A stretch of 64,000 bases of DNA, from contig CAUWGE010000002.1 of NCBI GenBank assembly GCA_963558395.1, positions 899 through 64,898 on the forward strand, read 5' to 3'. A model generated the notes under the pieces. That model saw only the letters and a list, made by a program, of their open reading frames with translations. It was not told where the DNA came from and did no database searches. This DNA comes from an uncultured Clostridia bacterium. Its GTDB lineage: Bacteria; Bacillota; Clostridia; TANB77; CAG-508. Of this stretch, positions 5,963 through 56,992 are shown piece by piece. Numbering within the stretch: position 1 is the first letter of the stretch; each line of letters starts with the position of its first letter. The translations under genes and the position numbers were made by a program.

Positions 5963-6712
5963 ATGTCAAAAACAATTTTAGAAGTAAAAAATCTAGGAAA
6001 AACATATCAAGCAGAAAATGGAGAGATAGAGGCTTTAAAAAATATAAGCTTTAAAGAAAAAGAAGGAGAATTTGTTAGCATAATAGGTCCTAGTGGATGT
6101 GGTAAATCGACTCTTTTATCTATAATAGCAGGACTAGAAAGTAAGAGTTTAGGAGAGAGCTACATAGATGGAAAAGTAGGATATATGCTACAAAAAGATA
6201 ACTTATTAGAATGGAGAACTATATATAAAAATGTTTTGTTAGGATTAGAAATTCAAAATATAAATACAGCAGAAAATAGAAAATATGCAGAGGACCTTTT
6301 AAAAAAATATGGACTATATGAATTTAAAAACAAATATCCGAATCAACTATCAGGAGGAATGAGACAAAGGGTAGCATTAATAAGAACGCTTGCAATAAGG
6401 CCAAAAGTATTGCTATTAGATGAAGCATTTTCAGCACTAGATTATCAAACAAGACTAATGGTTACGAATGATATATATAAAATACTAAAGAATGAAAATA
6501 TAACAGTGCTAATGGTAACACATGATATATCTGAAGCTATATCTATGTCGGATAGAATAATAGTTTTAACAAATAGACCAGCTTCTATAAAAAATATTCA
6601 TGAGATAAATTTTGGAATAAAAGAAAGAACCCCCTTAAATTGTAGGGAAAGTCCAAAATTTAGTGAATATTTTAATATTTTGTGGAAGGAGCTAGATGGA
6701 CATGAAAAATAA
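5963..6712 (+). CDS. ABC transporter ATP-binding protein (NitT/TauT, SsuB-like)
   Basis: Walker A GPSGCGKST, signature LSGGMRQR, Walker B LLLDEAFSALD. GGAGG precedes the ATG at 5963. Confidence 0.85.
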   Translation: MSKTILEVKNLGKTYQAENGEIEALKNISFKEKEGEFVSIIGPSGCGKSTLLSIIAGLESKSLGESYIDGKVGYMLQKDNLLEWRTIYKNVLLGLEIQNINTAENRKYAEDLLKKYGLYEFKNKYPNQLSGGMRQRVALIRTLAIRPKVLLLDEAFSALDYQTRLMVTNDIYKILKNENITVLMVTHDISEAISMSDRIIVLTNRPASIKNIHEINFGIKERTPLNCRESPKFSEYFNILWKELDGHEK

Positions 6713-7515
6713 TAAAGACAAAATAGAAAAAATTTCAGAAGAAAGAAAAAATTATTTATCAAAAGTAAAAAACAGAAAACTTACAATAATATTAACACAA
6801 ATAGGAATTATAATTGCGTTTATAGCATTATGGGAAATATTAGCTAGGTTAGGAAAGATAGACAGCTTTATAATGAGCCAGCCATCAAGAATAGTAAAAA
6901 CATTTTTAAATTTGTCGTCTAATGATTTACTAAAACATGTTGCTATAACGGTTTTAGAAACCATTGTACGGATTTACTTTAGGAACAGTGCTAGGAGTAA
7001 TAATTGCTGTTATTTTATGGTGGTCTCCATTTATATCTAAAGTGTCTGAACCATTTTTAGTAGTATTAAATAGTCTTCCAAAGGTAGCGTTAGGTCCCAT
7101 AATTATAATTTGGGTAGGAGCAGGAATGCCGGCAATTATAGTTATGGCATTGTTAATTTCACTAATAGTTTCTATACTAAATATACTTAATGGATTAATA
7201 AATACAGAGGAAGAAAAAATAAAGATGGCTAAAACACTAAACGCGAGTAAGTGGCAAATTCTTACTAAAATAGTTTTACCATCTAATTTTAAAACTATTT
7301 TTAATACACTAAAAGTAAATATTGGGCTATCTTTAGTTGGTGTAATTTCAGGAGAATTTTTAGTATCAAAAGGAGGTCTGGGATACTTAATAGTATATGG
7401 CGGCCAAGTATTTAAACTAGACTTAGTTATGACTAGTGTAATAATTTTAGGAATAGTAGCAGCTCTTATGTATGAAGGTGTTGAGCTATTAGAAAAGAAA
7501 GTATTTAAGGAATAA
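6696..7515 (+). pseudogene. ABC transporter permease (SsuC/TauC-like), frameshifted near 6960-6970
   Basis: ORF 6696..7040 reads as a permease N-terminus up to ...HVAITVLETIV, then turns to nonsense. ORF 6964..7515, in the +1 frame, continues with GFTLGTVLGVIIAVILWW... and the permease core. Confidence 0.6.
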
Positions 7516-7535
7516 GTATAAATAGGAGGAATGAT

Positions 7536-8549
7536 ATGAGCAGAAAAAAAACAATTTTATTTGAATTATTAATACTTATAATAATTGTTTTACAAATAGT
7601 TTTTATTTTTAAAATAAGAAATTCAAAAGAAGAGAATTTAAAAAGTGTAAAACTAAATGAAGTGACAAGGTCGGTTTTCTATGCACCTCAATATGTAGCA
7701 ATAGCAAATGGATATTTTGAAGAAGAGGGAATAAGTTTAGAAATTACAACAGGGCAAGGAGCTGACAACGTAATGACAGCTATTCTTTCAGGTCAAAGTG
7801 ATATTGGTTTATGTGGACCAGAAGCAGCAATTTACGTATATAATGAAGGAAAAGAAGATTATGCACAAATATTTAGTCAGCTTACTAAAAAAGACGGTTC
7901 ATTTTTAGTAGCAAGGGAAGAAACAAAAAATTTTTCTTGGAATGATTTGATGGGAAAAACAGTAATTCCAGGAAGAAAAGGAGGAGTACCATATATGACA
8001 TTAGAATATGTTCTAAAGCAAAATGGCATAAACCCAAAAACAGATGTAATTTTAGATGATAGCATAAAATTTGACCTTATGGCAGGAGCATTTTCAGCAG
8101 GAAATGCAGACTATGTAACACTTTTTGAACCAACTGCGTCAGGAACAGTAGCAGCAGGAAAAGGATATATTGTAACATCAATAGGTAAAGAAGCAGGAGA
8201 AATACCATATACAGCATATTGTGCAAAGAAAAGTTATATAAATGAAAATGGGGATACAATTTTAGGATTCACAAGAGCAATATACAAAGGAGAACAATGG
8301 GTAAAAGAACATACAGAAAAGGAAATAGGAGAAAAAATCCAAAAATTTTTTCCAGATACAACGCTAGAATCGCTAGAACAATCTATAAAAAGTTATAAAG
8401 AGATAGATGCTTGGTGTAGTGAGCCATATCTAAAAGAAGAAGCGTTTAATAAGCTTCAAGATATAATGAAAGAAGCTGGCGAATTAAAAGAAAAAGCTCC
8501 TTATGAGAAAATAGTAAATAACAATTTTGCGAACAAAGTAAAAGAATAA
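7536..8549 (+). CDS. ABC transporter substrate-binding protein (NMT1/THI5, SsuA/TauA family)
   Basis: N-terminal signal/anchor. Resembles periplasmic-binding-protein-like NMT1 proteins. Third gene of the ABC operon. Confidence 0.75.
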   Translation: MSRKKTILFELLILIIIVLQIVFIFKIRNSKEENLKSVKLNEVTRSVFYAPQYVAIANGYFEEEGISLEITTGQGADNVMTAILSGQSDIGLCGPEAAIYVYNEGKEDYAQIFSQLTKKDGSFLVAREETKNFSWNDLMGKTVIPGRKGGVPYMTLEYVLKQNGINPKTDVILDDSIKFDLMAGAFSAGNADYVTLFEPTASGTVAAGKGYIVTSIGKEAGEIPYTAYCAKKSYINENGDTILGFTRAIYKGEQWVKEHTEKEIGEKIQKFFPDTTLESLEQSIKSYKEIDAWCSEPYLKEEAFNKLQDIMKEAGELKEKAPYEKIVNNNFANKVKE

Positions 8550-15701: not shown

Positions 15702-18700
15702 TCATATGTTTTTTAGTATTTTTTCAATATATTCTTTTGTAATTTCAGGCCAATAGAAATCGGCTTTATCTAAAAATTTCAAAGTAAATGTATTTGTAAT
15801 TTTTAAGTTGGTTTTATATAATAGTTGTTTATCTTTATTCAAATCATTTAAAAGTACACTTACTTTATCAGAATTTGAACTATTAAACAAAACATTATTT
15901 AAATGTCTATTAAATATAAAATCATCTACTACACTTATATCATATCCTAAATTGTTTAAATATTCAATAAATTTCTGTATAAATAAATGTTTCGAATTAT
16001 ATAAATGTAATACAGACATTGGAGAAGTGTAGTATTTCATACAAACAACTATTGACTCAGCAATTTTATCAACAGGACTAAACTCAACATATTTATCTAG
16101 TAAAGAAAGAGGAATTTCTTTTAGATAAATGAATGCTTTTAGCCTATTTAAGAACGCATTATCATTACTGTTTTCTTGAAATTTTCCGTCGCTATATCTA
16201 TTTGTAATATTTCCAATTCTAAGGATGACACCTTTTAATTTTTTAGAAGAGATTTCATCTAAAATAAATTTTTCTGCTTCAAACTTACTTCTAACATAAA
16301 CATTATCTAGAGGTTGCTTTATAAATAGGTTAGTTTCTCCAAAAGAAATAATCTTATTTAACTTAAAAGTACTAGGTACACCAGTTAAAGTATTTCCAGA
16401 AACACTGATTGTTGATGTATGGTATAGTTCCTTATTAAATTCTTCACAAAATTTTACTAGATTTTTAGCACCAGTAACATTAATCTTTTCAAAATCTTTA
16501 TAATAGCCGTAATGTTTAACAGAAGCGGCACAGTTAATAACAGAAGATACTTCTTTTCCAAGAAAATTGTATATTTCGTTAGAAACCTTAAATTTATCAT
16601 TTGTTATATCTCCAGATATAACGAAAAGTCTGGTTCCAAATAAGTTACTTAAATCACTACCAAAATAATATTGGAATTTTCTCTTTAACTTATTTTCAGG
16701 AGAAGTACTAGGGTCTTCTCTTATTAAACAATAGATTTTGATATCATCTATTTTTAATAACTCAGCAAGAACATGAATTCCTAAAAATCCAGTAGCACCA
16801 ACTAACAAAACATTTTTGATGATTTTTTGTTTTAACTTTAATGCTCCAAAAGCAGAATTTTTCTTAAGCAGTTTATCTATTTTCTTAAAATCCTTAGGTG
16901 TATATGTTGGTAAGTTTTCGGTAGTAGAGTTATTTTCAACAAAATTAGCCAAGTCATGAATAGTGTTATTTTTAAATATATCACCATAATTCACAGTAAT
17001 ATTGTTTTTCATCAGCTCAATTTGCATTTTTAAAGCAGATAATGAATCCCCACCAATATCGAAGAAATTATCTTCAGTACTAATTTCTTCAAGAGAAAGA
17101 ATATCTCTCCAAATATTTAATATTTTACTTTCTAGTTCTGATTTAGGACGAACTATTGCAGCTGTTTTAAATACAGGATCAGGAAGAGCTTTTCTATCAA
17201 TTTTTCCATTTGGAGTGTATTTAAAGCTTTCGAGCTGAAGCATATAGTTAGGAACCATATAATTAGGCAATTTTTTTGCTAAAGCTTTTTTTAGTGTAGA
17301 GTATGGAACTCTTCCACTTGCTACAAAATATCCACATAAAAGCTCTCTATTATTAATGGTCTTAACAGTTACAACAGCATCACTAATACCTTCATATGAG
17401 CATATAGCTCTTTCTATTTCACCAAGTTCAATTCTAAGACCGCGAACTTTTACTTGAAAGTCGGTTCTACCTAAACAAATTAATTCACCATTAGGTAATA
17501 GCTTGGCTAAGTCTCCAGAATTGTAAATGATTTCATTATTATACTTAATAAATTTTTCAGAAGTAAGCTCAGGTCTATTTTTATATCCTAAAGTTACACC
17601 ATCTCCGCCAATATACAAAGTCCCTGGAACATAATATGGTACAAAGTTCATATCATTATCTAAAACGAGAACATGAGTGTTTGCAAGAGGAGTACCTATT
17701 GTAATGTCATTTGTATTTGTAAGATCTTTTAAAGTAGAGCCAACAGTAGTTTCGGTTGGACCATACATATTATAAACTTCTGTATCAGATAATTCTTTAA
17801 TTCTTTTAAGTAGCTCTAAAGGAAATGGTTCTCCTATTAATGAAACAATTTTAAGTTCTTTTAAATATGGAAGTTCGTCATTAATAAGTAGTTTAAATTT
17901 AGATGGTGTAGTTTGTATTACATCTACATTATTTTTTAAACAAAGTTCATTTAAAAGAATAGGATTGTTTTGCTCATCATTTGTAGCCATAACAACTTTC
18001 ATACCAGTGCAAAGAGGAAGCAAACTTTCAAAAACAAATATATCAAAACACATAGTTGTTATTGAAACAATAGTTTTTCCTTCTAATGGCATTCTTTCTA
18101 AGCAGCCATATATAAAGTTTACAACATTATATTGCTTTATCATGACTCCTTTAGGCTTACCTGTTGAACCAGATGTATAAATAAGGTAAGCTAAATCTTT
18201 TGGACCTTGCTCTGTGTTAAATTCAGAGTAAGGAAGGTAATTGGCTTTGTCATCAACTAAAAGATAATTAGTAGGTATTAAATCCTTTAAGTTATTTTCG
18301 GTTAGAATTAAATCTACTCCACTATTTTCAATAATATAACTAACTCTTTCTTCTGGATAGGTTGGGTCAATTGGTAAATATCCAGCACCAGATTTCAAAA
18401 TTGCAAGCATAGAGATGATTAAGTTATTTGAACGATTCATCATAATGCCAATGACATCTTTTTTTCCAAAAGTACGAAGTTTATTAGCAAGCCTATTTAT
18501 TTTTACTTCTAATTCTTTATATGTATATTGCTCGTTTTTACATACTAAAGCAATTTTATTTGGAGTAAGTTTAACTTGGTTTTCAAACATATCTATAACT
18601 CTAAAATCTCTAGGATAATCTAAAGTTGGATAAATATAAGGTATCTTAGATAACATTTGAATTTTAGATATTTGAATATCTGGATTTACTAAACAGCTAT

Positions 18701-21700
18701 TTATGATATTAAAATAGCAGTCAAGTAATGTTTTCATAAACTTTTCACTATAAAGATTAGTAGAATATTCTAATCTAAAGTTATAACCTGAACTTATAGG
18801 AGTGATCTCTAAAGAAAAATCAAATTTAGAAGTTTTATTTTCAGGAATAACATATTCTACCTCTTCACCATCAAATGAGAATGAAGGTCTACCACCACTT
18901 TCATAAGTAAAGAGTACATCAAATATAGGGCTTCTACTTGGATCTCTTATTACATTCAAAGTTTTTACTAAATCATCAAAAGGATAAGTTTGATGATTAA
19001 ATGCATTTAAACAATTCTTCTTTACTGCTTCTAAAAATACACTAAATCTACTAGCAGAATGTATGTTTTGCTTTAAAGGTAGAGTATTTACAAACATTCC
19101 AATAACATTAGAAATCTCAGGAGAATTTCTTCCTATAACAGGGCTACCAACTGTAATATCATTTTGCATAGTATATTTATACAAAAGAATATAAAAACAT
19201 GAAAGGAAGAACATATATGGTGTAATATTATATTTTTTGCATAATGTAGATATATCCGAAAGTTTATCTAAAGAAGCATAAACATTAGAACCCTCTTCAG
19301 ATTTTATATTTGTTCTTTCAAACTCAGTAGGCATATTTAAAAGAGGGATACCAGCAGAAAATTGCTCTTTCCAATATAATTTATCATCTTCACTTATAGT
19401 TTCAGAAACAGCATAATCTATATAATCAAGTTCAGATTTTAAAATTTGATTACCATTATATAAATCACACAATTCTTTAGCAAAAATGCTAATAGAAGTT
19501 CCATCACAAATTATATGATGAATATCTAGTTTTAATAAATATGAATCGTCAAAATGGTCTAATTCAACATGAACAAGAGGGGCTTTAGAAAGGTCAAAAG
19601 GCCTAATAAAGTTTTCGTTATCATATTCATTAACTGTTAGATGAAAATCAATATTTTTAACTAGTTTTTGAACTACATCATTATTTTCTAATACAAAATA
19701 TGTTTTAAATGCATCATGCATATTTAAAATTTGTGCTAAGCATTTCTCAAGCTTTGAAATGTCAGGCTTTGATCTAAATTTAACGCCAAAAGGAGTATTA
19801 TATGCCAAACTTTCAGTCTCCATATTTACTGTATAAAATATTCTTCTTTGAGCAGAAGAAACTGGATATGAATCAGCTTCTTTATGCTTTTTTATAACTA
19901 TCTTTTGGTAAGACGATGAATTTTTTTCTTCTAAAAGAGAAGAAAGCTCTTTAATAGAAGGCATGTTATAAATATCTTGAATATTTAACTTTATATTTAA
20001 AGTACTATATATTTCAGAAACTAGTCTTATAACTGAAAGAGAGTCCATACCCCAATCAAAAATATTAGCCGTAGCACTAATTTTATCTGTATCCAGAATG
20101 GGTTTTAAAATATTCTCTAATTTTTTTTCAAAGTCAGTTTCGCAAGGAACAAAATGTTCATGTATAATTTGTATTTCTGGTAAATTCTTTGTATCAATTT
20201 TTCCGTTTAATGTAATAGGAAAAATTGACAGTTGCATAATATGACTAGGAATCATATATTTGGGCAAAGACCTTGCAATAAAATCTTTAACATAATTTTC
20301 ATCCAATTTAGAGTCTGCTTTAATATATGAACAAATACAGTCAATATTGTTTACTTTCTTTATAACAGATATAGCATTTGTAACTTCAGGAATTTGCATG
20401 ATTTTAGATGTTATTTCATCAAGCTCGATACGTAAACCATGGAGCTTAATTTGATTATCTTGCCTTCCTAAGTAAATAAGTTCACCATCACTAGATAATA
20501 TACCTAAGTCTCCGGTATGATAAGTTCCATTAAAATCAAATTTATTAACATATCCTTTTCCTACGCCATCTCCTTTTATTACTATTTCTCCGCAAACGCC
20601 AGAAGGAAGGATATTGCCGAATTTGTTCATAATATAGATTTCAGTATTTAAAAATGGTTTCCCTATTGTAATATTATCATCTTTAACTTTTTTATTAGAA
20701 GCACAAGCAGTGCATTCAGAAGGACCATAACCATTATATATTTTAGCAGAAGTATTTTCTCTTAGCCTCTTATATAAAGAAGGTTTAAAAACTTCTCCAC
20801 CTAACTGAATTACTTTGACATCTTTTAAACAATCAGGTTCTTCTAATAAAAGACTAATTTTAGAAGGTGTACTTAAAATAAAATCAACATGGTTTTCCTT
20901 TATTAATTTGCTAGTAAAAGCAGGAATTTTTTGTTCTTCTTCATCTGCTAAAACAACAGTTTTTCCATCTAAAATAGAAACAAAATTTTCTACTATAAAC
21001 ATATCAAAGGCAACTGTACTAGTACTTAAAAAGTTTTTGCAATCATTAGTTTTTAATAGTTGTTTATAACTATTTAACATATTAATGATACCAATACGTT
21101 TTAATTCAACTCCTTTAGGTTTACCAGTTGAACCAGATGTATATATAATACAAAAGCGATCATCATTTGATGAATCAGCAGGTGAAAAACAAGTAGAAAA
21201 CTGTTTTCGATGTTCGATATTAATAGATGGGTAGTTTATATATAAATTTGTAAGAACAAGTTTGCTAGATGCATTTTCAAGCATATATTGAACCCTATCT
21301 TGTGGAAGGCTAGGATCTATTAACATATAAGAAGCCCCAACTTTTAAAACTCCCCAAATAGCAATTAATAAATCGAATGAACGATTAAACATTATACCAA
21401 CAGAGTCCTGTTTTTCTATTCCATAATTTAAAAGTAAATTTGCAACTTGATTAGACTTTTCATCTAATTCTTTGAAAGTAAGTTTTGCACCTTTAAAAAT
21501 TATAGCAGGTGAATTTTCGTTTAATTTTACAACTTTAGAAAAAAGGCTAATAAGAGAAGTATTTTTGTCATATTTAAATGAAGTATTATTAAAGTCAGAA
21601 ATGATTTTATTATCCTCTGGAGAAGTTACTTCTATGTTAGAAATTTGAGGATTTTGCAATGCAAATTTAGCCATTTCACAAATTCTAGAATGCAAAAGAT

Positions 21701-22904
21701 CTATATCTTTTTCCGAAAATTTAGAAATTTGATAATCATAAAAAATATTTGCTTCTCCTGTACCATCCATATCATAAAAATGTGCATCAATAGAATCACC
21801 AATATTAGAAATTGGCTCCCAAGTAGATTCATAATCAATTTCAGCAGTGTTTTTATTATCTCTAGCATTTTGGTAAGATAGCACAAAATCATATAAGTTG
21901 TCACTTATATCACATGTTTGTTTTATATGTTCTAGTAGTTCTAAATATGGGTATTTTTGGTGTCTAAAGATTGAGGTCTGAATATTCGAGACCTTATTTA
22001 AAAATTCATTAAATTTAAGATTAAAATCAATATCTATTTTAAATGGAACTGTGCTTACAAACATTCCAGAAGTATTTTTTTCAGTAAAATTGCTTCTATT
22101 TAAAACTGGTGTACCTAAAATAGCAGTTTTTGTAGAGTTAATTTTGGCTAAATAAATTGAAAAAATTGCCATAAAAAATGTATAAATAGAGCATTTATTT
22201 TCTTTGCAATATTCTAAAATAGCGTCATAAAGACTTGCTTCAAAAAAACAAATTTTTCGTTTAGAAGCGGAATTACTATTATTTTTATTTTTAGATATAT
22301 AAGTCAGTTCTGGTAAGTTTTCAAAATTACTCTCCCAGAATTCCTTATCTTTTATGAATCTGTTACTTTTTTTATACTCATTGCATGAGGCAATATAGTT
22401 TGTATATAATGGCTTTTTCTCAAAGTTAGTATCATTATGCAAAAGTTTTGTATAAATATCTATGAAAGTTGAGATAAATAGACTCATGCTCCAAGCGTCG
22501 GTAATTAAATGATGAAATATTGGAATAATTCCACCTCTTCCATCAGAAAGAGTAAATAATTTGAATTTATATAAATCCTTATCAATGGTTTCGAAGGGTT
22601 CTGAAATAAGCCTTGTGGTTAAAGCTTTTAAATCATCAATATTATTAAGTGACACGACATCTAGTGTAAAGGGCTTATACTCGGTCAAAAATTGAACTGG
22701 TTTAGCATCTTTTATATCAAAGTGCATACAAGATATTTCAGTAGTTTGCACATAAAGATTTGAGGCCTTTTGCAAAAGAGGAATATTTACTTTTTCATTC
22801 AGTAATAAATATCCACCAATATTATTTATATTGGTACCACTATAAAAGACTTCAGAATTCCAAATGTTTTTTTGCTGGTCTGTTAACTCAAATAAAGAAT
22901 TCAT
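15702..22904 (-). CDS. two-module non-ribosomal peptide synthetase, C-A-T-C-A-T-R, with a terminal thioester reductase
   Basis: C domains HHLITDAWS and HHIICDGTS. A-domain cores IIYTSGSTGKPKGV, YGPSECT, GRQDNQIKLHGLRIELDEI and LIYTSGSTGKPKGV, YGPTETT, GRTDFQVKVRGLRIELGEIE. T domains FDWGMDSLSVI and FFDIGGDSLSAL. C-terminal Rossmann fold VLLVGATGFLGIHV. 2400 aa. Confidence 0.95.
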   Translation of the reverse strand: MNSLFELTDQQKNIWNSEVFYSGTNINNIGGYLLLNEKVNIPLLQKASNLYVQTTEISCMHFDIKDAKPVQFLTEYKPFTLDVVSLNNIDDLKALTTRLISEPFETIDKDLYKFKLFTLSDGRGGIIPIFHHLITDAWSMSLFISTFIDIYTKLLHNDTNFEKKPLYTNYIASCNEYKKSNRFIKDKEFWESNFENLPELTYISKNKNNSNSASKRKICFFEASLYDAILEYCKENKCSIYTFFMAIFSIYLAKINSTKTAILGTPVLNRSNFTEKNTSGMFVSTVPFKIDIDFNLKFNEFLNKVSNIQTSIFRHQKYPYLELLEHIKQTCDISDNLYDFVLSYQNARDNKNTAEIDYESTWEPISNIGDSIDAHFYDMDGTGEANIFYDYQISKFSEKDIDLLHSRICEMAKFALQNPQISNIEVTSPEDNKIISDFNNTSFKYDKNTSLISLFSKVVKLNENSPAIIFKGAKLTFKELDEKSNQVANLLLNYGIEKQDSVGIMFNRSFDLLIAIWGVLKVGASYMLIDPSLPQDRVQYMLENASSKLVLTNLYINYPSINIEHRKQFSTCFSPADSSNDDRFCIIYTSGSTGKPKGVELKRIGIINMLNSYKQLLKTNDCKNFLSTSTVAFDMFIVENFVSILDGKTVVLADEEEQKIPAFTSKLIKENHVDFILSTPSKISLLLEEPDCLKDVKVIQLGGEVFKPSLYKRLRENTSAKIYNGYGPSECTACASNKKVKDDNITIGKPFLNTEIYIMNKFGNILPSGVCGEIVIKGDGVGKGYVNKFDFNGTYHTGDLGILSSDGELIYLGRQDNQIKLHGLRIELDEITSKIMQIPEVTNAISVIKKVNNIDCICSYIKADSKLDENYVKDFIARSLPKYMIPSHIMQLSIFPITLNGKIDTKNLPEIQIIHEHFVPCETDFEKKLENILKPILDTDKISATANIFDWGMDSLSVIRLVSEIYSTLNIKLNIQDIYNMPSIKELSSLLEEKNSSSYQKIVIKKHKEADSYPVSSAQRRIFYTVNMETESLAYNTPFGVKFRSKPDISKLEKCLAQILNMHDAFKTYFVLENNDVVQKLVKNIDFHLTVNEYDNENFIRPFDLSKAPLVHVELDHFDDSYLLKLDIHHIICDGTSISIFAKELCDLYNGNQILKSELDYIDYAVSETISEDDKLYWKEQFSAGIPLLNMPTEFERTNIKSEEGSNVYASLDKLSDISTLCKKYNITPYMFFLSCFYILLYKYTMQNDITVGSPVIGRNSPEISNVIGMFVNTLPLKQNIHSASRFSVFLEAVKKNCLNAFNHQTYPFDDLVKTLNVIRDPSRSPIFDVLFTYESGGRPSFSFDGEEVEYVIPENKTSKFDFSLEITPISSGYNFRLEYSTNLYSEKFMKTLLDCYFNIINSCLVNPDIQISKIQMLSKIPYIYPTLDYPRDFRVIDMFENQVKLTPNKIALVCKNEQYTYKELEVKINRLANKLRTFGKKDVIGIMMNRSNNLIISMLAILKSGAGYLPIDPTYPEERVSYIIENSGVDLILTENNLKDLIPTNYLLVDDKANYLPYSEFNTEQGPKDLAYLIYTSGSTGKPKGVMIKQYNVVNFIYGCLERMPLEGKTIVSITTMCFDIFVFESLLPLCTGMKVVMATNDEQNNPILLNELCLKNNVDVIQTTPSKFKLLINDELPYLKELKIVSLIGEPFPLELLKRIKELSDTEVYNMYGPTETTVGSTLKDLTNTNDITIGTPLANTHVLVLDNDMNFVPYYVPGTLYIGGDGVTLGYKNRPELTSEKFIKYNNEIIYNSGDLAKLLPNGELICLGRTDFQVKVRGLRIELGEIERAICSYEGISDAVVTVKTINNRELLCGYFVASGRVPYSTLKKALAKKLPNYMVPNYMLQLESFKYTPNGKIDRKALPDPVFKTAAIVRPKSELESKILNIWRDILSLEEISTEDNFFDIGGDSLSALKMQIELMKNNITVNYGDIFKNNTIHDLANFVENNSTTENLPTYTPKDFKKIDKLLKKNSAFGALKLKQKIIKNVLLVGATGFLGIHVLAELLKIDDIKIYCLIREDPSTSPENKLKRKFQYYFGSDLSNLFGTRLFVISGDITNDKFKVSNEIYNFLGKEVSSVINCAASVKHYGYYKDFEKINVTGAKNLVKFCEEFNKELYHTSTISVSGNTLTGVPSTFKLNKIISFGETNLFIKQPLDNVYVRSKFEAEKFILDEISSKKLKGVILRIGNITNRYSDGKFQENSNDNAFLNRLKAFIYLKEIPLSLLDKYVEFSPVDKIAESIVVCMKYYTSPMSVLHLYNSKHLFIQKFIEYLNNLGYDISVVDDFIFNRHLNNVLFNSSNSDKVSVLLNDLNKDKQLLYKTNLKITNTFTLKFLDKADFYWPEITKEYIEKILKNI

Positions 22905-23019
22905 TTTTTATACCTCTTGTATTATTAAATTTTAAACATATTATATATATTATTAATGCAAAATGCAATAATAAATGAACATTAAAGTAATAAATTTACG
23001 AGTAAAAGTCAAATATAGA

Positions 23020-23048
23020 TTGACTTAATTTACATAATGATATATAAT
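23020..23048 (+). promoter_or_regulatory. sigma-A-type promoter (TTGACT-17-TATAAT) for the cysteine-rich ORF
   Basis: TTGACT at 23020-23025, a 17-nt spacer, TATAAT at 23043-23048. Confidence 0.45.
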
Positions 23049-23114
23049 TAAAGAGTAACTTGTAGACAAAAAAAGAGAGAAATCTCTGAACTATTATTTA
23101 AGAAAGGGACAATA

Positions 23115-23687
23115 ATGGACACTACAAACAAAAACTTAAATTCAAAAAGCCGCTATGAGTTAAAAATTGAAGGAGAAAATATTACGCTCCTTCAGATTCT
23201 TCCCGAAAAGAGGGAATATCCTTTAAAACGGGTAAGTAAAGAGCTCGTAAGAGCTCAGAGAAAAGAGAAAATTCCTTCCTTCATTTTGAAACTGGGAGAG
23301 GAGTTATATTACTCAGAAATAGCGAAAGACAGTGCTTTTTCGTCTACTGACCTCTTACAGAATCCGCATAAATGTGGAGAATGTGACAGAATGAACTGCT
23401 GTAGTGACGAATGCGGTGGATGCAAGAAGGTTCGAGACGGATGTTTTGGAATTGAAAACTATCCATTTATAATAAGAGGATATGAAACAATTTTTATTGA
23501 GTTTTCATGTTTTGTAGTTAGTGAATGTACTAACTACGAAAGACCAAAAAAGAAAAAGAAAACGCATTTCGACTGCAGATTTTTTTCACAAATTAACGAA
23601 AACACATGTGCATGCAGTAAAACAGGATTTAAGAAAAGAATTAATCCCAGTGAAAACTGCAAAAATTGTCCTGTATTAAATAAGTGA
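23115..23687 (+). CDS. cysteine-rich hypothetical protein with atypical, GC-richer codon usage
   Basis: 190 aa with 17 Cys, including CGECDRMNCCSDECGGCKKVRDGC. Frequent CTC/CCG/CGG/GAC codons that are rare elsewhere in the window. Has its own promoter and terminator. Confidence 0.5.
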   Translation: MDTTNKNLNSKSRYELKIEGENITLLQILPEKREYPLKRVSKELVRAQRKEKIPSFILKLGEELYYSEIAKDSAFSSTDLLQNPHKCGECDRMNCCSDECGGCKKVRDGCFGIENYPFIIRGYETIFIEFSCFVVSECTNYERPKKKKKTHFDCRFFSQINENTCACSKTGFKKRINPSENCKNCPVLNK

Positions 23688-23689
23688 GA

Positions 23690-23726
23690 AAAGGATCCTT
23701 GCCGTTTGGCAAGGGTCCTTTTCAGA
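23690..23726 (+). terminator. rho-independent terminator
   Basis: AAGGATCCTTGCC-gtttg-GGCAAGGGTCCTTTTC: a perfect GC-rich hairpin followed by a T-run. Confidence 0.7.
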
Positions 23727-23845
23727 ATTAATATAAAAAATGCAAAATAAAAAGGCATCTTAGATATAAAATGAAGATAAAATATTGAAAAATATAAAAA
23801 ATTGGTATATTATACAATTAATAAAAAATAATGGAGGAAATATGT

Positions 23846-25588
23846 ATGAGTGAAGAATCAAACTTAATACCAAAAATGAATAATTATAGAGAAATATTAG
23901 AATATGTACAAAAAAATTATGCAGACAATATTGCATATAAATATAAAGAAAATATAATAAAAGATCCACCTAAATATATAGAAAAAAAATATAGTCAAGT
24001 AGTAAAAGATGTAAAAGCACTTGCAACTGCTCTTTTAGACCTGGGCTTTAAGGGAAAGAGGATCGCACTAATTGGTGAAAATAGATATGAGTGGTGCATT
24101 AGTTATTTAGCTGTTACTTGTGGAGGGATGGTAATTGCACCTATGGACAAGTTACTTCCAGATAAAGAAATAACATCTTTGGTAAAAAGAAGTGAAGTTG
24201 ATGCAGTTATTTATGAGAAAAAACATGAAGAACTATTCAAAAAATTAAAAAATGATGGAGAAATAAAGCTAAATACTATAATTTGTATAGATGCAGATGA
24301 AGATGATGAAGATCCAGCAGTAACAAAACTTGAAGATTTAATAAAAAAAGGAAGAAAATTAATAAAAGAAAAAAGTAAACTATATGATGAAGTAGAAATA
24401 GACAATGATGCAATGTCTATAATGCTATTTACATCTGGAACAACAGCAAATGCTAAAATTGTAATGTTATCACAAAATAATATTTGTTCTAATATATATG
24501 CATATCAAAATCACTTTAAAATAAAAGAAGATGACACTTTGTTATCATTTTTACCAATACATCATACCTTTGAAAGCAGTATAACAATATTATATGGATT
24601 TTATAGTGGAGCTACAATTGCATTTTGTGATGGTTTAAGATATATTCAAACAAATTTAAAGGAATATGAAGTATCAATATTTGTTGCTGTACCTTTAGTT
24701 TTAGAAACAATGTATAAAAAAATAAAAAAGGGAATACAAGACCAAGGAAAAACAAAATTAATAGAGACTGTAACTAAAATATCAAATACATTATTAAAAG
24801 CTCATATTGATTTAAGAAAGGTACTTTTCAAAAAAATTACTGATAACTTTGGTGGAAAACTTAGAATGGTACTTTATGGAGCAGCATCTTTAGATAAAGA
24901 TACAATTATAGGATTAAATAATTTTGGAATAAATTCAATTCAAGGCTATGGATTAACTGAAACATCACCTGTACTTACAGCAGAATCAGAAGAAAAGCAT
25001 TGTCCTGGTTCAATAGGATATCCTTTGGACAATGTTGAAATAAAAATTCATAATCCAGATAATGGGGGCGTTGGAGAAATATATGCTAAAGGACCAAACA
25101 TTATGCTAGGATATTATGGAGACGAGAAGAAAACAAAAGAGACTTTTGATGACGGATGGTTTAAAACAGGAGATTATGGATATATAAATAGGGATGGATT
25201 CGTATTTGTAACAGGAAGAAAAAATGATATTATAGTACTTAAAAATGGAAAGAATGTGTATCCACAAGAAATAGAAACATTGATTGCAAAATTACCATAT
25301 GTAGCAGAGTGCATGGTATTTTCAAGAGAAGCAAATTCAACAGATACAATGCTTGTTGCAAAAATTGTATACAATAAAGAAGAGATGGAAAAAGATTATC
25401 CAGATAAAAAAGGAGATTATGAGAAAATAATTTGGAAAGACATAAAAGAAATAAATAAGACATTACCAACTTTTAAGCATATTAAAAAAATCATTGTAAC
25501 AGATAAGCCAATGATAAAGACAACTACACAAAAGGTTAAAAGATATGAAGAAATAAGAAAAACAGAAAGAGAAATGGATAAAGCTTAA
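23846..25588 (+). CDS. long-chain fatty-acid--CoA ligase (AMP-binding/ANL superfamily)
   Basis: AMP-binding motifs LFTSGTTANAKIV, YGLTETS and GWFKTGDYGYI. GGAGG precedes the ATG at 23846. Confidence 0.85.
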   Translation: MSEESNLIPKMNNYREILEYVQKNYADNIAYKYKENIIKDPPKYIEKKYSQVVKDVKALATALLDLGFKGKRIALIGENRYEWCISYLAVTCGGMVIAPMDKLLPDKEITSLVKRSEVDAVIYEKKHEELFKKLKNDGEIKLNTIICIDADEDDEDPAVTKLEDLIKKGRKLIKEKSKLYDEVEIDNDAMSIMLFTSGTTANAKIVMLSQNNICSNIYAYQNHFKIKEDDTLLSFLPIHHTFESSITILYGFYSGATIAFCDGLRYIQTNLKEYEVSIFVAVPLVLETMYKKIKKGIQDQGKTKLIETVTKISNTLLKAHIDLRKVLFKKITDNFGGKLRMVLYGAASLDKDTIIGLNNFGINSIQGYGLTETSPVLTAESEEKHCPGSIGYPLDNVEIKIHNPDNGGVGEIYAKGPNIMLGYYGDEKKTKETFDDGWFKTGDYGYINRDGFVFVTGRKNDIIVLKNGKNVYPQEIETLIAKLPYVAECMVFSREANSTDTMLVAKIVYNKEEMEKDYPDKKGDYEKIIWKDIKEINKTLPTFKHIKKIIVTDKPMIKTTTQKVKRYEEIRKTEREMDKA

Positions 25589-28165: not shown

Positions 28166-28735
28166 ATGAAAGAGGTAAACCGGAAATTAACAAAAGTATC
28201 AAGGATAGTAATGGAAAAGAAAAATGTATTTATAATTCTTTTCTCAATAGTCTTAGGAATATTCCTAATTGATATTCGAAAGAAGCATAATTGTGAGATA
28301 AGTATATGGCAACTATTAATGTTGTATATTGTAATCATAGTTACTATAAGTATTTGTTGCAGGATTATAGAACATATAAGAACATGGCATATAATAAATA
28401 AAAGTGATGTAATAATAGTGGAAGATGTAAGTGTGTTAGACCTAATCTGGGCAATGAAAGACTTCTTAAAAGATACCGTTATATTGCTTCCGAAAAATGG
28501 TCGTGTGGTGGATAAAAATCCAAAAGATGTATTTAGTGAAGCTGGATATGAACCATATAGGGGGTTTGTGAAAGAAGCGGTGCAAAATATTAACAGCTAT
28601 CAAATGCCAATACTCATAATTATGAAAAAACGGGAAAAACTTAAAATGGATTGGAACAATCTATCTCATGTGTATATACGAAAGATAGATAAAAGAGAGT
28701 GGAAGAATGTATTGAAAAAGGCATATTACCACTGA
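28166..28735 (+). CDS. hypothetical membrane protein
   Basis: 189 aa with two N-terminal TM helices. RBS AAGGAGG. Confidence 0.4.
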   Translation: MKEVNRKLTKVSRIVMEKKNVFIILFSIVLGIFLIDIRKKHNCEISIWQLLMLYIVIIVTISICCRIIEHIRTWHIINKSDVIIVEDVSVLDLIWAMKDFLKDTVILLPKNGRVVDKNPKDVFSEAGYEPYRGFVKEAVQNINSYQMPILIIMKKREKLKMDWNNLSHVYIRKIDKREWKNVLKKAYYH

Positions 28736-31241: not shown

Positions 31242-32657
31242 ATGATGAAGAAAAATGAAACAAATTCTACACCAGAAAACGAAGCTTTGCAAAAAGAAAA
31301 AACTGTAAAAACAAAAGAAACTAAGCCAACAAAAAAAGAAAAATCTAAAGAACCAAGAGAAAAAAAGAGCAAAGCAAGTGGTAGCTATGTAACAGGAATT
31401 ATAGGAGCAATAGTAGGAGGAATTATTGCAACAATTCCATGGGTTTTAATGTATGTATATGGTAATATGATGTTATCAGCACTAGCAATCCTTATAGCAG
31501 CAGGAGAATTGCTTGGATACAAGCTTTTAAAAGGCAAAATGACAAAGGCTGTGCCAATTATAATTATGGCAATAGCAATTGTAATCGTATCAGTAACTAC
31601 ACTATTAGTAATACCAAGCGTGCTATTATATAATGAAGGAGTTGTAGTAAGTGTAAATACCTTAAAAGTACTATATGCAGATAGTGAGTTTACAGGAGCT
31701 ATAACACAAGATTTCATATTAGCAGTTGTATTTACTATATTAGGAGCAAGTGTTATTACAGCAAATATTAAAAAGCAAATTGCAGAAGGAACAGCAGGCA
31801 GATTAGAGGATTTTAGTAAAGAAGAGCTAGAAGAAAAAAAGAATTTAGCAATTCAAAAAATAAAACCAATATTTGAAAAGTTTAATGCAACAACAAAAGA
31901 ACATGGAATTTCAAAACAAGAACTATTTGCGGAATTTGAAGAGTCTGAAGAACTAAAGGCTAGCTTTAATTTTCTAAAGTCAATTAAAATAATAAACAAA
32001 GAAAAAGGAAAATATTACTTTTCAGAAGAAGTAGCTGAAAAACCGATTGAAATAAAGAAAAGCAAGAAAACGCATATAATAATAGCTTGTGCATTAGTAA
32101 TAATAATAGCTTTAGGTGTTGGAATAGGGATAGCCACAAATAAAGGTTTACTAGGAAATAATGAAGTTATAACAGATGGAATGTTGAGCTTTGAAATAAA
32201 TAAAAGCTGGACTGCATATAGCAATTATTATAATAGTGGATGGAGCTATTATAAATTCATAAACTCAGTTCCATTAGCAGATGATGCTAATGTTAATGAA
32301 ATAGCGTATGATGAATATCCAGCATACTTAAATGTTAGTTATTATGAAATTACAGCTGAAGATATTTCATCAATTGAAGATGTACAAAAGAATATGAAAG
32401 AATATGCAGAAAGTATGGAAGAACCACCAGCAGAGTATAAAGATGAAATAGTAAAAACATCAAAAGGTTATGATATGCTAAAAATAAGAACAGTATTTAA
32501 AGGAGACTATGATTGTGTAGAATATGCATATTATATTTTAAATGGAAAAAATTTAGCAACAGTAGATACATATTCATTTAACATGAAAGATGATGAATCA
32601 ATACAAAAAACAGCAGAAGAAATAGCAAATACACTTGAATGGAAAGAAGCGGAATAA
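31242..32657 (+). CDS. hypothetical polytopic membrane protein with a K/E-rich N-terminus
   Basis: 471 aa with several TM helices and a C-terminal soluble domain. RBS GGGGG. Confidence 0.45.
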   Translation: MMKKNETNSTPENEALQKEKTVKTKETKPTKKEKSKEPREKKSKASGSYVTGIIGAIVGGIIATIPWVLMYVYGNMMLSALAILIAAGELLGYKLLKGKMTKAVPIIIMAIAIVIVSVTTLLVIPSVLLYNEGVVVSVNTLKVLYADSEFTGAITQDFILAVVFTILGASVITANIKKQIAEGTAGRLEDFSKEELEEKKNLAIQKIKPIFEKFNATTKEHGISKQELFAEFEESEELKASFNFLKSIKIINKEKGKYYFSEEVAEKPIEIKKSKKTHIIIACALVIIIALGVGIGIATNKGLLGNNEVITDGMLSFEINKSWTAYSNYYNSGWSYYKFINSVPLADDANVNEIAYDEYPAYLNVSYYEITAEDISSIEDVQKNMKEYAESMEEPPAEYKDEIVKTSKGYDMLKIRTVFKGDYDCVEYAYYILNGKNLATVDTYSFNMKDDESIQKTAEEIANTLEWKEAE

Positions 32658-32707
32658 GTAATAATAATAAATATGAAAAGGCATAAGAATATATAAAGTA
32701 AAATCTA

Positions 32708-32740
32708 ATAAACAGGTGGCAATATTGTCACCTGTTTATA
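32708..32740 (+). terminator. rho-independent terminator
   Basis: AAACAGGTG-gcaatattgt-CACCTGTTTATAT. Confidence 0.55.
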
Positions 32741-32823
32741 TATAAAGCAAAGAGGAGATAATTTATAAAAAATACATAGTAATGAGATGTATGAGGTTTT
32801 TTGTAAATATTTCAATACAACTA

Positions 32824-32853
32824 TTGACATTTGTACCAATTTTGTGGTATCAT
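32824..32853 (+). promoter_or_regulatory. promoter of the tRNA-Arg/tRNA-Pro operon (TTGACA-18-TATCAT with TG)
   Basis: TTGACA at 32824-32829, an 18-nt spacer, then tgGTATCAT. About 25 nt upstream of the first tRNA. Confidence 0.5.
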
Positions 32854-32881
32854 AATTTATGTCGTAAGAATTATAATATTT

Positions 32882-32958
32882 GGGTCAGTAGCTCAGTTGG
32901 ATAGAGCATCGGCCTTCTAAGCCGAGGGTCGGGGGTTCGAATCCCTCCTGGCTCACCA
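32882..32958 (+). tRNA. tRNA-Arg (anticodon TCT)
   Basis: GGGTCAGTAGCTCAGTTGGATAGAGCA…; anticodon loop CTTCTAA; T-loop GGTTCGAATCC; CCA end. Confidence 0.8.
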
Positions 32959-32986
32959 TATTTTATTATAGTCTTATGTACATTAT

Positions 32987-33062
32987 CGAGGTGTAGCGCA
33001 GTTGGTAGCGCGCGTGGTTTGGGACCATGAGGTCGCAGGTTCGATCCCTGTCACCTCGACCA
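32987..33062 (+). tRNA. tRNA-Pro (anticodon TGG); its 3' end is the integration site of the downstream element
   Basis: CGAGGTGTAGCGCAGTTGGTAGCGC…; anticodon loop TTTGGGA; T-loop GGTTCGATCC; acceptor CACCTCG-A-CCA. Confidence 0.85.
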
Positions 33063-33075
33063 CTTTTTTGCCCTT

Positions 33076-33260
33076 TTTCAAGGGAATTTAAGAGAATTTG
33101 AAGAAATTCAAAAGTTATAAATTATGCTATTTTTCAATAAAAATGAAGAATAGCATAATTTTTTAAAGTTCAGAAAAATGCTATAAAATTTGCTTATTTT
33201 CTTCAAGAAAAAGTTTCAAGAAAATTTTTATAATTTTTCAAGAAAGTTTCAAGGAAAAAT
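33076..33260. repeat. array of GTTTCAAG(A/G)AAA direct repeats plus an 11-bp inverted repeat upstream of repA (iteron or arm-site-like)
   Basis: TTTCAAGGGAA (33076), GTTTCAAGAAAA (33213), GTTTCAAGGAAA (33247), ATTATGCTATT…AATAGCATAAT (33121-33161). The 15-mer AAGTTTCAAGGAAAA recurs at 42867-42881. Confidence 0.55.
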
Positions 33261-33310
33261 ATCAAGTTGTTTTAAAGTTCTTCAGATAAATAGAAAGGAG
33301 AACTTTTTTT

Positions 33311-34216
33311 ATGGAATTTAAACCTTATAAAGATAATGAATATTTAGAAAATTCATATTATAAAATACCACAAGAACTATTTGTAAGTTCTTTATATAAA
33401 GATAAAATAAATTCAGATAGTAAAATACTATATGCTTTTTTACTAGACAGATTATCACTATCTCAAAAAAATCACTGGATAGATGAAGAAAGAAATATAT
33501 ATTTAATTTTTACAAGAGAAGAAGTACAAGAAAAATTGAATTTATCTGACAAGACTGCAACAAAAGCATTCAAACAGTTAGGTGATGTAGGACTTGTACA
33601 AGAGAAAAGACAAGGATTAGGAAGGCCTAATTTAATATATGTTGGAAAAATACAACATGAAGAAACGGAAAATTTACGTTTCTTGATTCGTAAAAATTAC
33701 GATTCTGGAAACGAAGATATTACGAATCTTGAATCGGAGAATTTACGAGGAATCGATACTAATAATATCAAAACTAATATAATCAATACTGATTCTATCA
33801 ATCCTAATAGCGATGATGAACTTCATTTAAAAGAAATAAAAGATAAATGCAAACTAGATGAATTTCCTCAAGAAGAAAAAACTATCTTAGAAGATGTTAT
33901 TGATAGCCTATATTATAAAGATAATTTGAAAGTTGGGAGTGTAACAGTTAATCACTACAAAATATTAGATAAATTAAAACTTATTGTTAAAGAAAATTTA
34001 ATACAGTTATTAGATATATTAAAAAATATACCTAATATACAAAATGCTAAAAATTATTTGATGATTTGCTTATATAATAATTTAGGAAATACACATATTA
34101 CTATCCCAAAGAAAAAAGAGAATACTACTTCATATAATGGAAGGGACTATGAAAATGGCTCACTTGATTTTCTATATGCTAACTTTGCTTATGATAACGA
34201 AGCAGTAACTTCGTAG
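33311..34216 (+). CDS. replication initiator protein A (RepA_N family)
   Basis: The N-terminal YYKIPQELF…SDSKILYAFLLDRLSLSQKN…RPNLIYVGK is typical of Firmicutes RepA_N initiators. Confidence 0.8.
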   Translation: MEFKPYKDNEYLENSYYKIPQELFVSSLYKDKINSDSKILYAFLLDRLSLSQKNHWIDEERNIYLIFTREEVQEKLNLSDKTATKAFKQLGDVGLVQEKRQGLGRPNLIYVGKIQHEETENLRFLIRKNYDSGNEDITNLESENLRGIDTNNIKTNIINTDSINPNSDDELHLKEIKDKCKLDEFPQEEKTILEDVIDSLYYKDNLKVGSVTVNHYKILDKLKLIVKENLIQLLDILKNIPNIQNAKNYLMICLYNNLGNTHITIPKKKENTTSYNGRDYENGSLDFLYANFAYDNEAVTS

Positions 34217-40834: not shown

Positions 40835-41040
40835 TTAAATAGCACATTGAAAATTGAATATTTCAGTTGTTAGATACAGCATAATGAGACACTTGCATAG
40901 CCTTAACTCATCGTATAGGGTGCAACTCGGACGGAGTCGGAGTGGTGAAATTCCAGTGGAGTAATGTAAATTACCATCTAATAATTCCCAGATGATGAGG
41001 GACAAGGAAAATATCATCATAAATAAAGCACGAAAGGAGA
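40835..41040 (+). other. GC-enriched, hairpin-rich ~200-nt leader between the promoter and xis (possible regulatory RNA)
   Basis: Local GC clearly above the surroundings (…GGGTGCAACTCGGACGGAGTCGGAGTGGTGAAATTCCAGTGG…). GATGATGA…TCATCATC hairpin. The 61-aa ORF here looks spurious. Confidence 0.2.
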
Positions 41041-56212: not shown

Positions 56213-56241
56213 TTTACATAAGAGATAAAATATGGTATAAT
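56213..56241 (+). promoter_or_regulatory. extended -10 promoter (TTTACA-17-TGgTATAAT), followed by the GGGTCaatGGACCC palindrome
   Basis: tttaca at 56213-56218, TGGTATAAT at 56233-56241, and the inverted repeat GGGTC…GACCC at 56268-56281. Confidence 0.45.
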
Positions 56242-56322
56242 AATAGCGAAACTTTTGACAAAAACAGGGTCAATGGACCCACTTTCTGCTATAATAAAAA
56301 AGAAAAAACGGAGGAATACAAG

Positions 56323-56922: not shown

Positions 56923-56933
56923 AAATAGCAGAA

Positions 56934-56992
56934 AGATGGAGGGCTTAGCGAAGATACTGTTTCAGTAGCATCGCTTTAGGCCCTCTCTTTAA
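56934..56992 (+). terminator. long GC-rich hairpin terminator
   Basis: GGAGGGC-ttagcgaagatactgtttcagtagcatcgcttta-GGCCCTCTCTTT. Confidence 0.55.

Follow-up and report, generated by a model that had tools for sequence, protein, structure and literature searches.

A GC-rich, cysteine-rich cassette of an unannotated protein family in an uncultured Clostridia bacterium

The contig CAUWGE010000002.1 of an uncultured Clostridia bacterium (assembly GCA_963558395.1) contains a GC-rich, cysteine-rich open reading frame (ORF) within AT-rich surroundings, and the question raised by this locus is whether the gene is a recent arrival, a component of the adjacent nonribosomal peptide synthetase (NRPS) locus, or a gene of a different kind. 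The analysis covered a stretch of 64,000 nucleotides of the contig (positions 899 to 64,898 of the forward strand), referred to as the window, and coordinates are window positions unless a locus handle (L followed by a number) is given. An earlier note on the window had proposed that the gene was recently acquired by horizontal transfer and might serve in metal or Fe-S binding or in immunity. The reading towards which we lean, without great assurance, is that the gene encodes a cytoplasmic protein of an unannotated family that would bind Zn or an Fe-S cluster, and that it forms an NRPS-independent cassette with strong transcription, translational gating and a stable mRNA.

The protein and its family

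An exhaustive phmmer search against 1.84 billion representative proteins identified 400 relatives of the encoded protein at E<=1e-3 (197 at E<=1e-10), each of them the representative of a cluster at 50% identity. The relatives are 150-310 amino acids long and share 35-46% identity with the window protein over residues 30-150, the approximate family core of some 115 amino acids (nt 23202..23564). A family hidden Markov model matched the target ORF (E 4.5e-48) and nothing else in the window. Word-indexed searches of 5.8 billion proteins returned the protein's own cluster alone when a single sequence was used and 5-10 unnamed relatives when profiles were used, so that the family is visible only through the exhaustive search. 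The window protein had no match in Pfam, NCBIfam, PHROGs, PADLOC or the PDB sequences, 46 family members gave nothing consistent against Pfam, NCBIfam, PHROGs and PADLOC, PDB sequence searches with the window protein and the family profile produced chance matches only, and the ten longest members contained no Pfam domain and no domain fusions. The view of the earlier note that the protein has no recognizable family thus holds for the curated libraries only. Judged by sequence, the protein belongs to a large unannotated family which, as sampled so far, is one of AT-rich, uncultured gut and rumen Clostridia (where a source of the family loci is named, it is an uncultured member of the Clostridia in the gut of humans, rabbits or ruminants).

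Four cysteines (C87, C90, C103 and C138) are invariant among 148 aligned family members, and H85, D98, G101, G102, K105, V106, R107, I113, E114, G122 and E124 are conserved in at least 90% of them (family consensus PSFVLK...LYY...HxCxxCxRLSAASDExGGCxKVR...IExYPWIxxGYETFN...FVVxxCxHYE). The invariant cysteines as well as H85, D98, G101, G102, K105, R107, E114 and E124 are unchanged in 14 sequenced variants of the window protein. The cysteine clusters quoted by the earlier note were found in the protein, and its count of 17 cysteines has to be corrected to 14, all of which are unchanged among the protein variants of the window species. The ten cysteines outside the set of four are found in the host species only, as is the cysteine-rich tail formed by residues 151-190. 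An AlphaFold (AF2) model based on the 148-sequence alignment reached a predicted local distance difference test (pLDDT) score of 84.4 and a predicted template modeling (pTM) score of 0.74, with residues 11-150 mostly above 90; a model from a shallow alignment (pLDDT 36) was useless and was discarded. Foldseek searches of PDB and BFVD with the family model returned no match (best E 0.4-1.3, TM <=0.21). Since the four invariant cysteines and the conserved H85 all lie within the confidently modeled core, the metal or Fe-S binding role suggested by the earlier note is a plausible prediction, and we infer from the sequence that the protein is probably metal-binding, with Zn or an Fe-S cluster as the ligand.

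Small proteins in which four cysteines hold zinc or an Fe-S cluster include zinc ribbons, treble clefs, WhiB-like proteins and ferredoxin-like proteins. The window protein resembles them in its invariant CxxC knuckle with two distal cysteines and a nearby conserved histidine, and in being small and cytoplasmic, but its family lacks any sequence or profile match to Pfam, NCBIfam and PDB and any structural neighbor in PDB and BFVD. We know of no family with the spacing C-x2-C-x12-C-x34-C or with the motifs SAASDExGGCxKVR and GYETF. The family comprises at least 400 clusters, has an invariant set of four cysteines and a confident predicted fold, and is without relatives in Pfam, NCBIfam, PDB and BFVD, which makes it an obvious candidate for structural and biochemical study.

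Between the two main haplotypes of the window species the protein core (amino acids 53-142) displayed a synonymous divergence (dS) of 0.10-0.22 and a nonsynonymous divergence (dN) of 0.005-0.014 (dN/dS approximately 0.06), and the N- and C-terminal parts a dN/dS of approximately 0.45. Purifying selection on the core is strong and the termini are fast-evolving. The core dN/dS, the 400 homologues and the confident AF2 model establish the ORF as a genuine coding gene.

Genomic context and the raised GC content

The gene lies between an NRPS gene (15702..22904, minus strand, 2400 amino acids with the domains C-A-T-C-A-T-R) and an AMP-ligase gene (23831..25588), and it is flanked by genes for the NRPS, a histidine kinase, the AMP-ligase, Ddl and Alr. 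AusA-type dimodular NRPSs with a terminal reductase belong to dipeptide aldehyde and pyrazinone pathways, and the enzymes release dipeptide aldehydes (PMC8210680). The window NRPS matches the aureusimine AusA model NF047350 over A-T-C-A-T-R (1292 bits, below the equivalog cut-off) and differs from AusA in an additional N-terminal C domain. The position of the gene between NRPS and AMP-ligase, together with an AMP-ligase homologue (41% identity) that adjoins the family gene in one other species (L023/L053), could indicate an NRPS accessory protein that confers self-resistance, supplies a metal or Fe-S cofactor or regulates the cluster. However, a tblastn search with the window NRPS found no match in 44 family loci from other species (16 loci from species-representative genomes and 28 metagenome loci, 410 kb; the metagenome loci L029-L031 belong to the window's own species and are not counted among the 44). 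The gene is transcribed alone and divergently from the NRPS, the ligase of L053 is convergent and without NRPS linkage, and the family is far wider than the NRPS cluster type among the loci sampled; as far as tested in the 44 loci, the gene is no component of AusA clusters. An accessory role is accordingly very unlikely. The earlier note was right about position alone when it placed the gene inside the NRPS locus, as the gene has its own promoter and terminator, and a functional link to the NRPS through immunity or tailoring found no support in the 44 loci, which lack an NRPS and have otherwise unrelated neighborhoods. The note had also considered that homologues might turn out to be a housekeeping family unrelated to NRPS loci; they are unrelated to such loci, and the family is not a known housekeeping family. 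The gene is an independent monocistronic cassette with no detectable link to the NRPS beyond its position, and NRPS cluster annotation loses a misleading candidate.

The neighborhoods of the family genes are unconserved save for traces of local synteny, and some genomes contain tandem or paired paralogues. In L020 (5651..8483) two tandem paralogues (6944..7606 and 7794..8483) are divergent from an adjoining CotJA spore-coat-domain gene, which is the sole hint of a sporulation context among the family loci. The locus L031 (contig VOFC01001020.1) was rejected as a 65%-identical orthologue from a sister species: it belongs to the window species, and homopolymer indels in this long-read assembly split the NRPS gene into many ORFs and lower the identity of the target to 65%, an assembly artifact.

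The ORF has a GC content of 0.346 and a GC content at third codon positions (GC3) of 0.314, compared with a median GC3 of 0.149 among 47 other ORFs of the window (robust z 5.6, binomial p 3e-8); only the ORF 56323..56922 is higher. The GC-rich codons named by the earlier note are used in the gene (CTC three times, CCG and CGG once each, GAC seven times) and are scarce among the neighbor genes at family loci, where CTC makes up 0.02 of the Leu codons and CGG 0.01 of the Arg codons. The compositional deviation on which the note had based its proposal of recent acquisition is therefore significant. A GC island was found, however, in approximately two-thirds of the family loci (GC 0.36-0.44 and GC3 0.28-0.49, compared with a GC3 of 0.12-0.19 in the surrounding genes), and the codon shift across the family is general, with A-ending codons depleted and all C- and G-ending codons enriched.

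In every sampled strain of the window species the gene is located between the NRPS and the AMP-ligase. Its 29 protein variants form one 90%-identity cluster, the two commonest variants being present on 50 and 65 contigs, and its two old haplotypes are equally GC-rich. The cassette coincides with an island of divergence between strains: 68 differences from strain L007 were found in the cassette region (23015-23900) compared with 0-5 per 300 bp in the flanks, and the dS of the gene is 0.24-0.26 compared with 0.005-0.03 for neighbor genes. Strains L009 and L010 are almost identical to the window over 5 kb on each side, yet carry 20 differences in the 3' half of the gene, most of them matching the other haplotype, so that the alleles are mosaics produced by recombination. 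Transitions (35) and transversions (30) are balanced among the substitutions, and this result together with the lack of a repeat of the gene in the window led to the rejection of a diversity-generating retroelement target; a paralogous donor cassette was rejected as no donor copy is present in the window. A minor divergence peak within the NRPS gene (17300..18200, at most 10 differences per 300 bp, present even in strains with identical flanks) suggests a recombination tract in one NRPS domain. One other species group (L023/L053) resembles the window species in the hyperdivergence of the cassette. Across species, the tree of the family genes conflicts with the flanking genes: the neighbors are 72-80% identical and the family genes 49% identical between L015 and L020, while the neighbors are 48% identical and the family genes 67.5% identical between L013 and L015.

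Several of these observations could be accounted for by recent acquisition of a foreign gene, that is, by a moron-like cassette from a higher-GC donor that was dropped between the NRPS and the ligase. A phage moron consists of one ORF that has a promoter and a terminator of its own and differs in composition from the adjacent genes (PMC4378225), and the window cassette is likewise monocistronic, equipped with a sigma-70 promoter and an intrinsic terminator, odd in composition and located between unrelated genes. The general codon shift is unlike selection for optimal codons, the discordant gene tree would fit transfer, and both testable species groups with GC-rich copies (that of the window and L023/L053) show hyperdivergent cassettes. 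However, the window cassette is chromosomal, stands among housekeeping genes without prophage context, is fixed in the species at one site in all sampled strains, and has promoter, leader and 3' elements that are conserved as parts of the gene family. The flanking GC content is 23-33% at every one of the 44 other-species loci, and neither these loci nor a viral contig collection yielded a host, phage or plasmid home of higher GC; the scan of this collection gave no confirmed family relative, and no PHROG match was family-wide. No terminal repeats or target duplications were found around the cassette, the sequence conservation of the family ends at the -35 hexamer and at the terminator, and the synonymous GC is employed in RNA helices, as described below. 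A mobile element (IS200/IS605-like or other) was rejected since no Pfam transposase and only weak AT-rich flanking repeats were present. Because the gene is fixed, its haplotypes are equally GC-rich and no higher-GC home was found, recent transfer into the locus is not the best reading and we consider it unlikely. The proposal of recent acquisition also sits poorly with the family-wide GC enrichment and the correlation of GC3 with mRNA folding (see below). Raised GC is a long-standing trait of the family and not evidence of recent transfer here, and composition-based transfer calls in low-GC gut bacteria may be misled by GC islands of this kind.

Promoter, leader and predicted mRNA structure

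The promoter and leader architecture is conserved across the family. Of 34 distinct family genes, 30 are preceded by a near-consensus sigma-70 promoter, in each case with a 17-nt spacer, and nine of these promoters are a perfect TTGACA-17-TATAAT; an equal promoter score was reached by 21% of 294 control genes (p=3e-12 versus the family). The promoter described by the earlier note was located upstream of the gene (TTGACT-TAATTTACATAATGATA-TATAAT), and among 13 strain sequences both hexamers are invariant while the spacer differs at 5 positions. The conserved family promoter spacer is ATTtACATAAAaTG. Its motif ACATAA was found in 17 of 20 family promoters compared with approximately 2 of 57 true controls (65 other strong promoters were screened, 10 contained the motif and 8 of these proved to be family promoters). 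The conserved spacer motif is probably an operator, as judged from the sequence pattern. Within the window the form TTTACATAA was dropped as a regulon motif (6 matches compared with 4.3 expected).

Two stem-loops are present in the leaders of the family. Since RNAalifold gave no consensus structure, explicit pair counting on a MAFFT alignment was used, by which 84.7% of the cells were paired compared with 28-49% for slid partners. Eight of 11 pairs have changed on both sides, and 0-1 of 500 shuffles were equally good. The stem-loop in the window leader is the positional counterpart of hairpin 2 of the family (GAGAC-nnnn-GTCTC); the window leader is misaligned in the MAFFT family alignment, and the equivalence was judged from position. 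Canonical family members have a strong Shine-Dalgarno (SD) sequence, and strong hairpin terminators are found 3' of most family genes, with a common conserved core in one subfamily. The strong GC hairpin reported by the earlier note is present at the end of the window gene but is not perfect, as it contains one G-U pair. Overall, the window gene carries all elements of the family cassette, namely the 17-nt-spacer promoter with ACATAA, a leader hairpin before the SD sequence, and a terminator.

In every haplotype the leader of the window gene, including the SD sequence, is predicted to pair with the final 25 nt of the ORF. In the predicted fold-back TTATTTAA pairs with TTAAATAA, and GGGACAAT, which covers the SD sequence, pairs with ATTGTCCT. 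The duplex of leader and 3' end (terminator excluded) has a calculated energy of -18.8 kcal/mol compared with -6.8 +/- 2.3 for shuffled 3' ends (0/300 equal), and its energy ranges from -12.2 to -21.4 kcal/mol across haplotypes. No other segment along the ORF pairs better with the leader than the last one, which also ranks first among 25 family 3' ends; a first scan that began at the stop codon had missed this pairing, and later scans included the ORF end. In a subfamily, CCAATAAT beside the SD sequence is paired with ATTATTGG ahead of the terminator; two variants of this pair, CCAATAAC/GTTATTGG and the dissimilar 12-nt CTAGTAATCAAA/TTTGATTACTAG, occupy that position as well. The 5'/3' duplexes of family genes (-13.9 kcal/mol) are more stable than those of non-family genes (-9.2 kcal/mol, p=3e-8).

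The whole transcript (23055..23725) has a minimum free energy (MFE) of -189.7 kcal/mol compared with -133.7 +/- 7.3 kcal/mol for dinucleotide shuffles (z -7.6). The ORF alone gave a z of -6.5 with dinucleotide shuffles and of -4.1 and -6.5 in two runs of synonymous-codon shuffles. Among 41 other window genes, 39 lie between z -2.7 and +0.9 (dinucleotide shuffles), the exceptions being a gene at 35699 (z -3.8) and the ORF 56323..56922 (z -9.7). The family mean is z -2.5 compared with -0.25 for neighboring genes (p=9e-7), and 13 of 35 family members but none of 38 controls have a z below -3. All haplotypes of the window gene remain structured (z -3.0 to -6.5), and GC3 correlates with folding z across the family (rho -0.37, p=0.03). 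The best explanation is that part of the excess synonymous GC serves RNA structure rather than marking foreign origin.

Structured RNA genes in AT-rich genomes typically look like GC-rich islands with a consensus promoter and a terminator, and with the transcript folding at z -7.6 it might be asked whether a structured non-coding RNA is the functional product and the ORF incidental. This explanation is hardly credible: the protein core is under strong purifying selection with synonymous sites free to vary, the amino acid motifs are kept across 148 sequences despite diverged DNA, the AF2 model is of high confidence, a strong SD sequence is present in canonical members, and the helices differ between haplotypes. 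The RNA might nevertheless play a dual role. An Rfam search of the window found nothing for the target at the gathering threshold and chance-level matches at E<=1, and eight canonical family loci gave no match.

Several results weigh against the favored reading with its structured, translationally gated mRNA. RNAalifold predicted no consensus structure for the whole leader alignment. Within the ORF, 19 individual MFE pairs are broken between haplotypes, 8 are one-sided and 2 compensatory, and the substitutions between haplotypes do not avoid paired positions; conserved specific helices within the ORF were therefore rejected as unsupported, and what persists is a tendency to fold and not a single conserved structure. 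Quasi-palindrome template switching or another mutational process could give rise to this tendency. RNA structure cannot account for all of the GC enrichment since the members in L015, L017 and L020 are GC-rich without excess structure. The comparison of own with swapped 5'-3' pairs across the family was marginal (p=0.048), and clear 5'-3' pairing is not seen in about half of the family members. Finally, the cassettes of three other species groups do not exceed their flanks in divergence, and hyperdivergence was for this reason rejected as a family trait.

In hok-type mRNAs a 5'-3' fold-back (tac/fbi) closes the mRNA and hides the SD sequence (PMC9841398). The window cassette is similar in that its leader including the SD sequence is complementary to the 3' end, its predicted mRNA is compact and very stable, and its promoter appears constitutive. 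It differs in that the product is a soluble, hydrophilic protein of 190 amino acids with a four-cysteine set, whereas the hok product is a hydrophobic peptide of fewer than 60 amino acids, in that the 3' arm lies inside the ORF, and in that no antisense RNA gene was found for the cassette (best antisense promoter match 9/12, no Rfam match). Morons and hok-type mRNAs are the nearest analogies, and the cassette lacks defining features of both. The resemblance to hok bears on a further explanation, in which the cassette is a selfish or conflict element (toxin, addiction or phage defense) whose locked mRNA keeps it silent and whose allelic diversity and exchange between lineages are driven by conflict. 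The predicted SD-sequestering fold-back follows hok-like logic, and the hyperdivergent mosaic alleles with fast termini around a conserved core, the tandem or paired paralogues in some genomes and the discordance of gene tree and synteny would all fit. However, no partner gene and no convincing antisense promoter were found, no PADLOC match is family-wide, type I toxins, as small membrane peptides, do not resemble the soluble four-cysteine protein, and the cassettes of the three other species groups mentioned above are ordinary in their variability. We regard a selfish element as improbable.

The favored reading of an NRPS-independent cassette for a metal-binding protein can be put as a sequence of steps. 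The near-consensus sigma-A promoter, in which the spacer motif would likely act as an operator, would drive strong transcription of a compact, nuclease-resistant mRNA formed by the covarying leader stem-loops, in many members by a GC-enriched, helix-packed ORF, and by the strong terminator. In the window gene the predicted pairing of leader and SD sequence with the ORF end would keep this mRNA closed for translation, and protein output would be set post-transcriptionally through opening or processing of the fold-back; this gating we infer from structure prediction. The polymorphism would reflect two old allelic lineages within the species that have been shuffled by recombination, with the core conserved and the termini evolving fast. 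Taken together, the conserved spacer, the covarying hairpins, the predicted SD-sequestering fold-back and the structured ORF suggest a design for post-transcriptional control of a kind known mainly from tiny toxin genes, here applied to a protein of ordinary size. A tentative extension, which we consider possible but doubtful, is that the cassettes represent an unrecognized class of chromosomal modules with locked mRNAs in AT-rich gut Clostridia, in which a hyper-structured, GC-enriched transcript would be made from a consensus promoter and closed by the 5'-3' fold-back. Release of the closure through processing, stress or a trans factor would then yield a metal-binding protein of novel fold in a burst, and this protein may in that case also recognize the conserved motif of the promoter that drives it. 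The design may extend to unrelated genes such as the ORF 56323..56922 and a cysteine-rich gene in L016 (see below), which, if true, would explain a class of GC islands in low-GC genomes that currently pass for horizontal transfers. The features of the window cassette are collected in table 1.

Table 1. Features of the cassette and its immediate surroundings in window coordinates
Feature	Position	Strand	Details
Sigma-70 (sigma-A) type promoter	23020..23048	+	TTGACT-17-TATAAT; 11/12 consensus match
Family spacer motif inside the promoter	23029..23037	+	TTTACATAA
Leader stem-loop	23074..23087	+	AGAGA-GAAA-TCTCT; MFE; invariant among strains
Predicted fold-back, 5' arm	23094..23113	+	TTATTTAA 23094..23101 and GGGACAAT 23106..23113; inverted repeat, MFE, duplex energies
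Shine-Dalgarno sequence	23105..23109	+	AGGGA, just 5' of the ATG at 23115
Cysteine-rich protein-coding gene	23115..23687	+	190 amino acids, ATG start, 14 Cys
Predicted fold-back, 3' arm	23665..23683	+	final ORF codons; ATTGTCCT 23665..23672 and TTAAATAA 23676..23683
Intrinsic terminator	23688..23726	+	stem-loop 23688..23723; 16-bp GC-rich stem (one G-U pair), GUUU loop, U run
Divergence island coinciding with the cassette	22980..23704	.	strain comparison

Other loci in the window and in related contigs

A second GC-rich monocistronic cassette is present at 56215..56990. Its ORF (56323..56922, plus strand, 199 amino acids, GC 0.377, GC3 0.35) is preceded by a promoter (TTTACA-17-TATAAT with an extended -10 TG) and a leader of approximately 80 nt, and is followed by a long hairpin terminator. 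The folding of this ORF exceeds that of the target (z -9.7 with dinucleotide and -9.6 with synonymous shuffles), and its only matches, to the SSB-like model PRK05813 and to a PHROG of unknown function, are weak and sub-threshold. In L016 an ORF of 389 amino acids with 19 cysteines (6237..7406, minus strand, GC 0.44) is divergent from the family gene of that locus, has no Pfam match, is conserved in four related contigs and has a synonymous-shuffle z of -5.8; it hints that GC-rich and hyper-structured genes may form a wider class in these genomes. The third ORF of the window with a high GC3 (28166..28735, plus strand, GC3 0.295) encodes a membrane-like protein of 189 amino acids without a family match. 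The spacer of its promoter contains the reverse complement of TTTACATAA, but neither its folding (z -1.3 to -1.4) nor its divergence (dS 0.028) stands out.

The AMP-ligase gene downstream of the cassette is present as two ORFs in L005 (181 and 391 amino acids) and L009 (272 and 292 amino acids), which reflects either pseudogenization or an assembly error. Owing to a 4-nt indel at 23828..23831, most strains lack the ligase ATG at 23831 used in the window and begin the gene at the position equivalent to 23846. Further downstream, an insertion of approximately 1.4 kb in L005 (15934..16864, corresponding to window position ~29015) carries a DUF2207_C gene and an ORF of 131 amino acids, and is absent from the window and from the other strains. 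The strains diverge completely from about 32615..33700, a stretch that begins shortly ahead of two tRNA genes (32882..32955 and 32987..33059) and extends downstream of them. A Fic-domain gene is present there in some contigs and an rve integrase gene in one; the region looks like a tRNA-associated integration hot spot. Finally, an Rfam pemK RNA cis-regulatory element (RF02913) was identified at 40881..40959 on the plus strand with 51.9 bits, above the gathering score.

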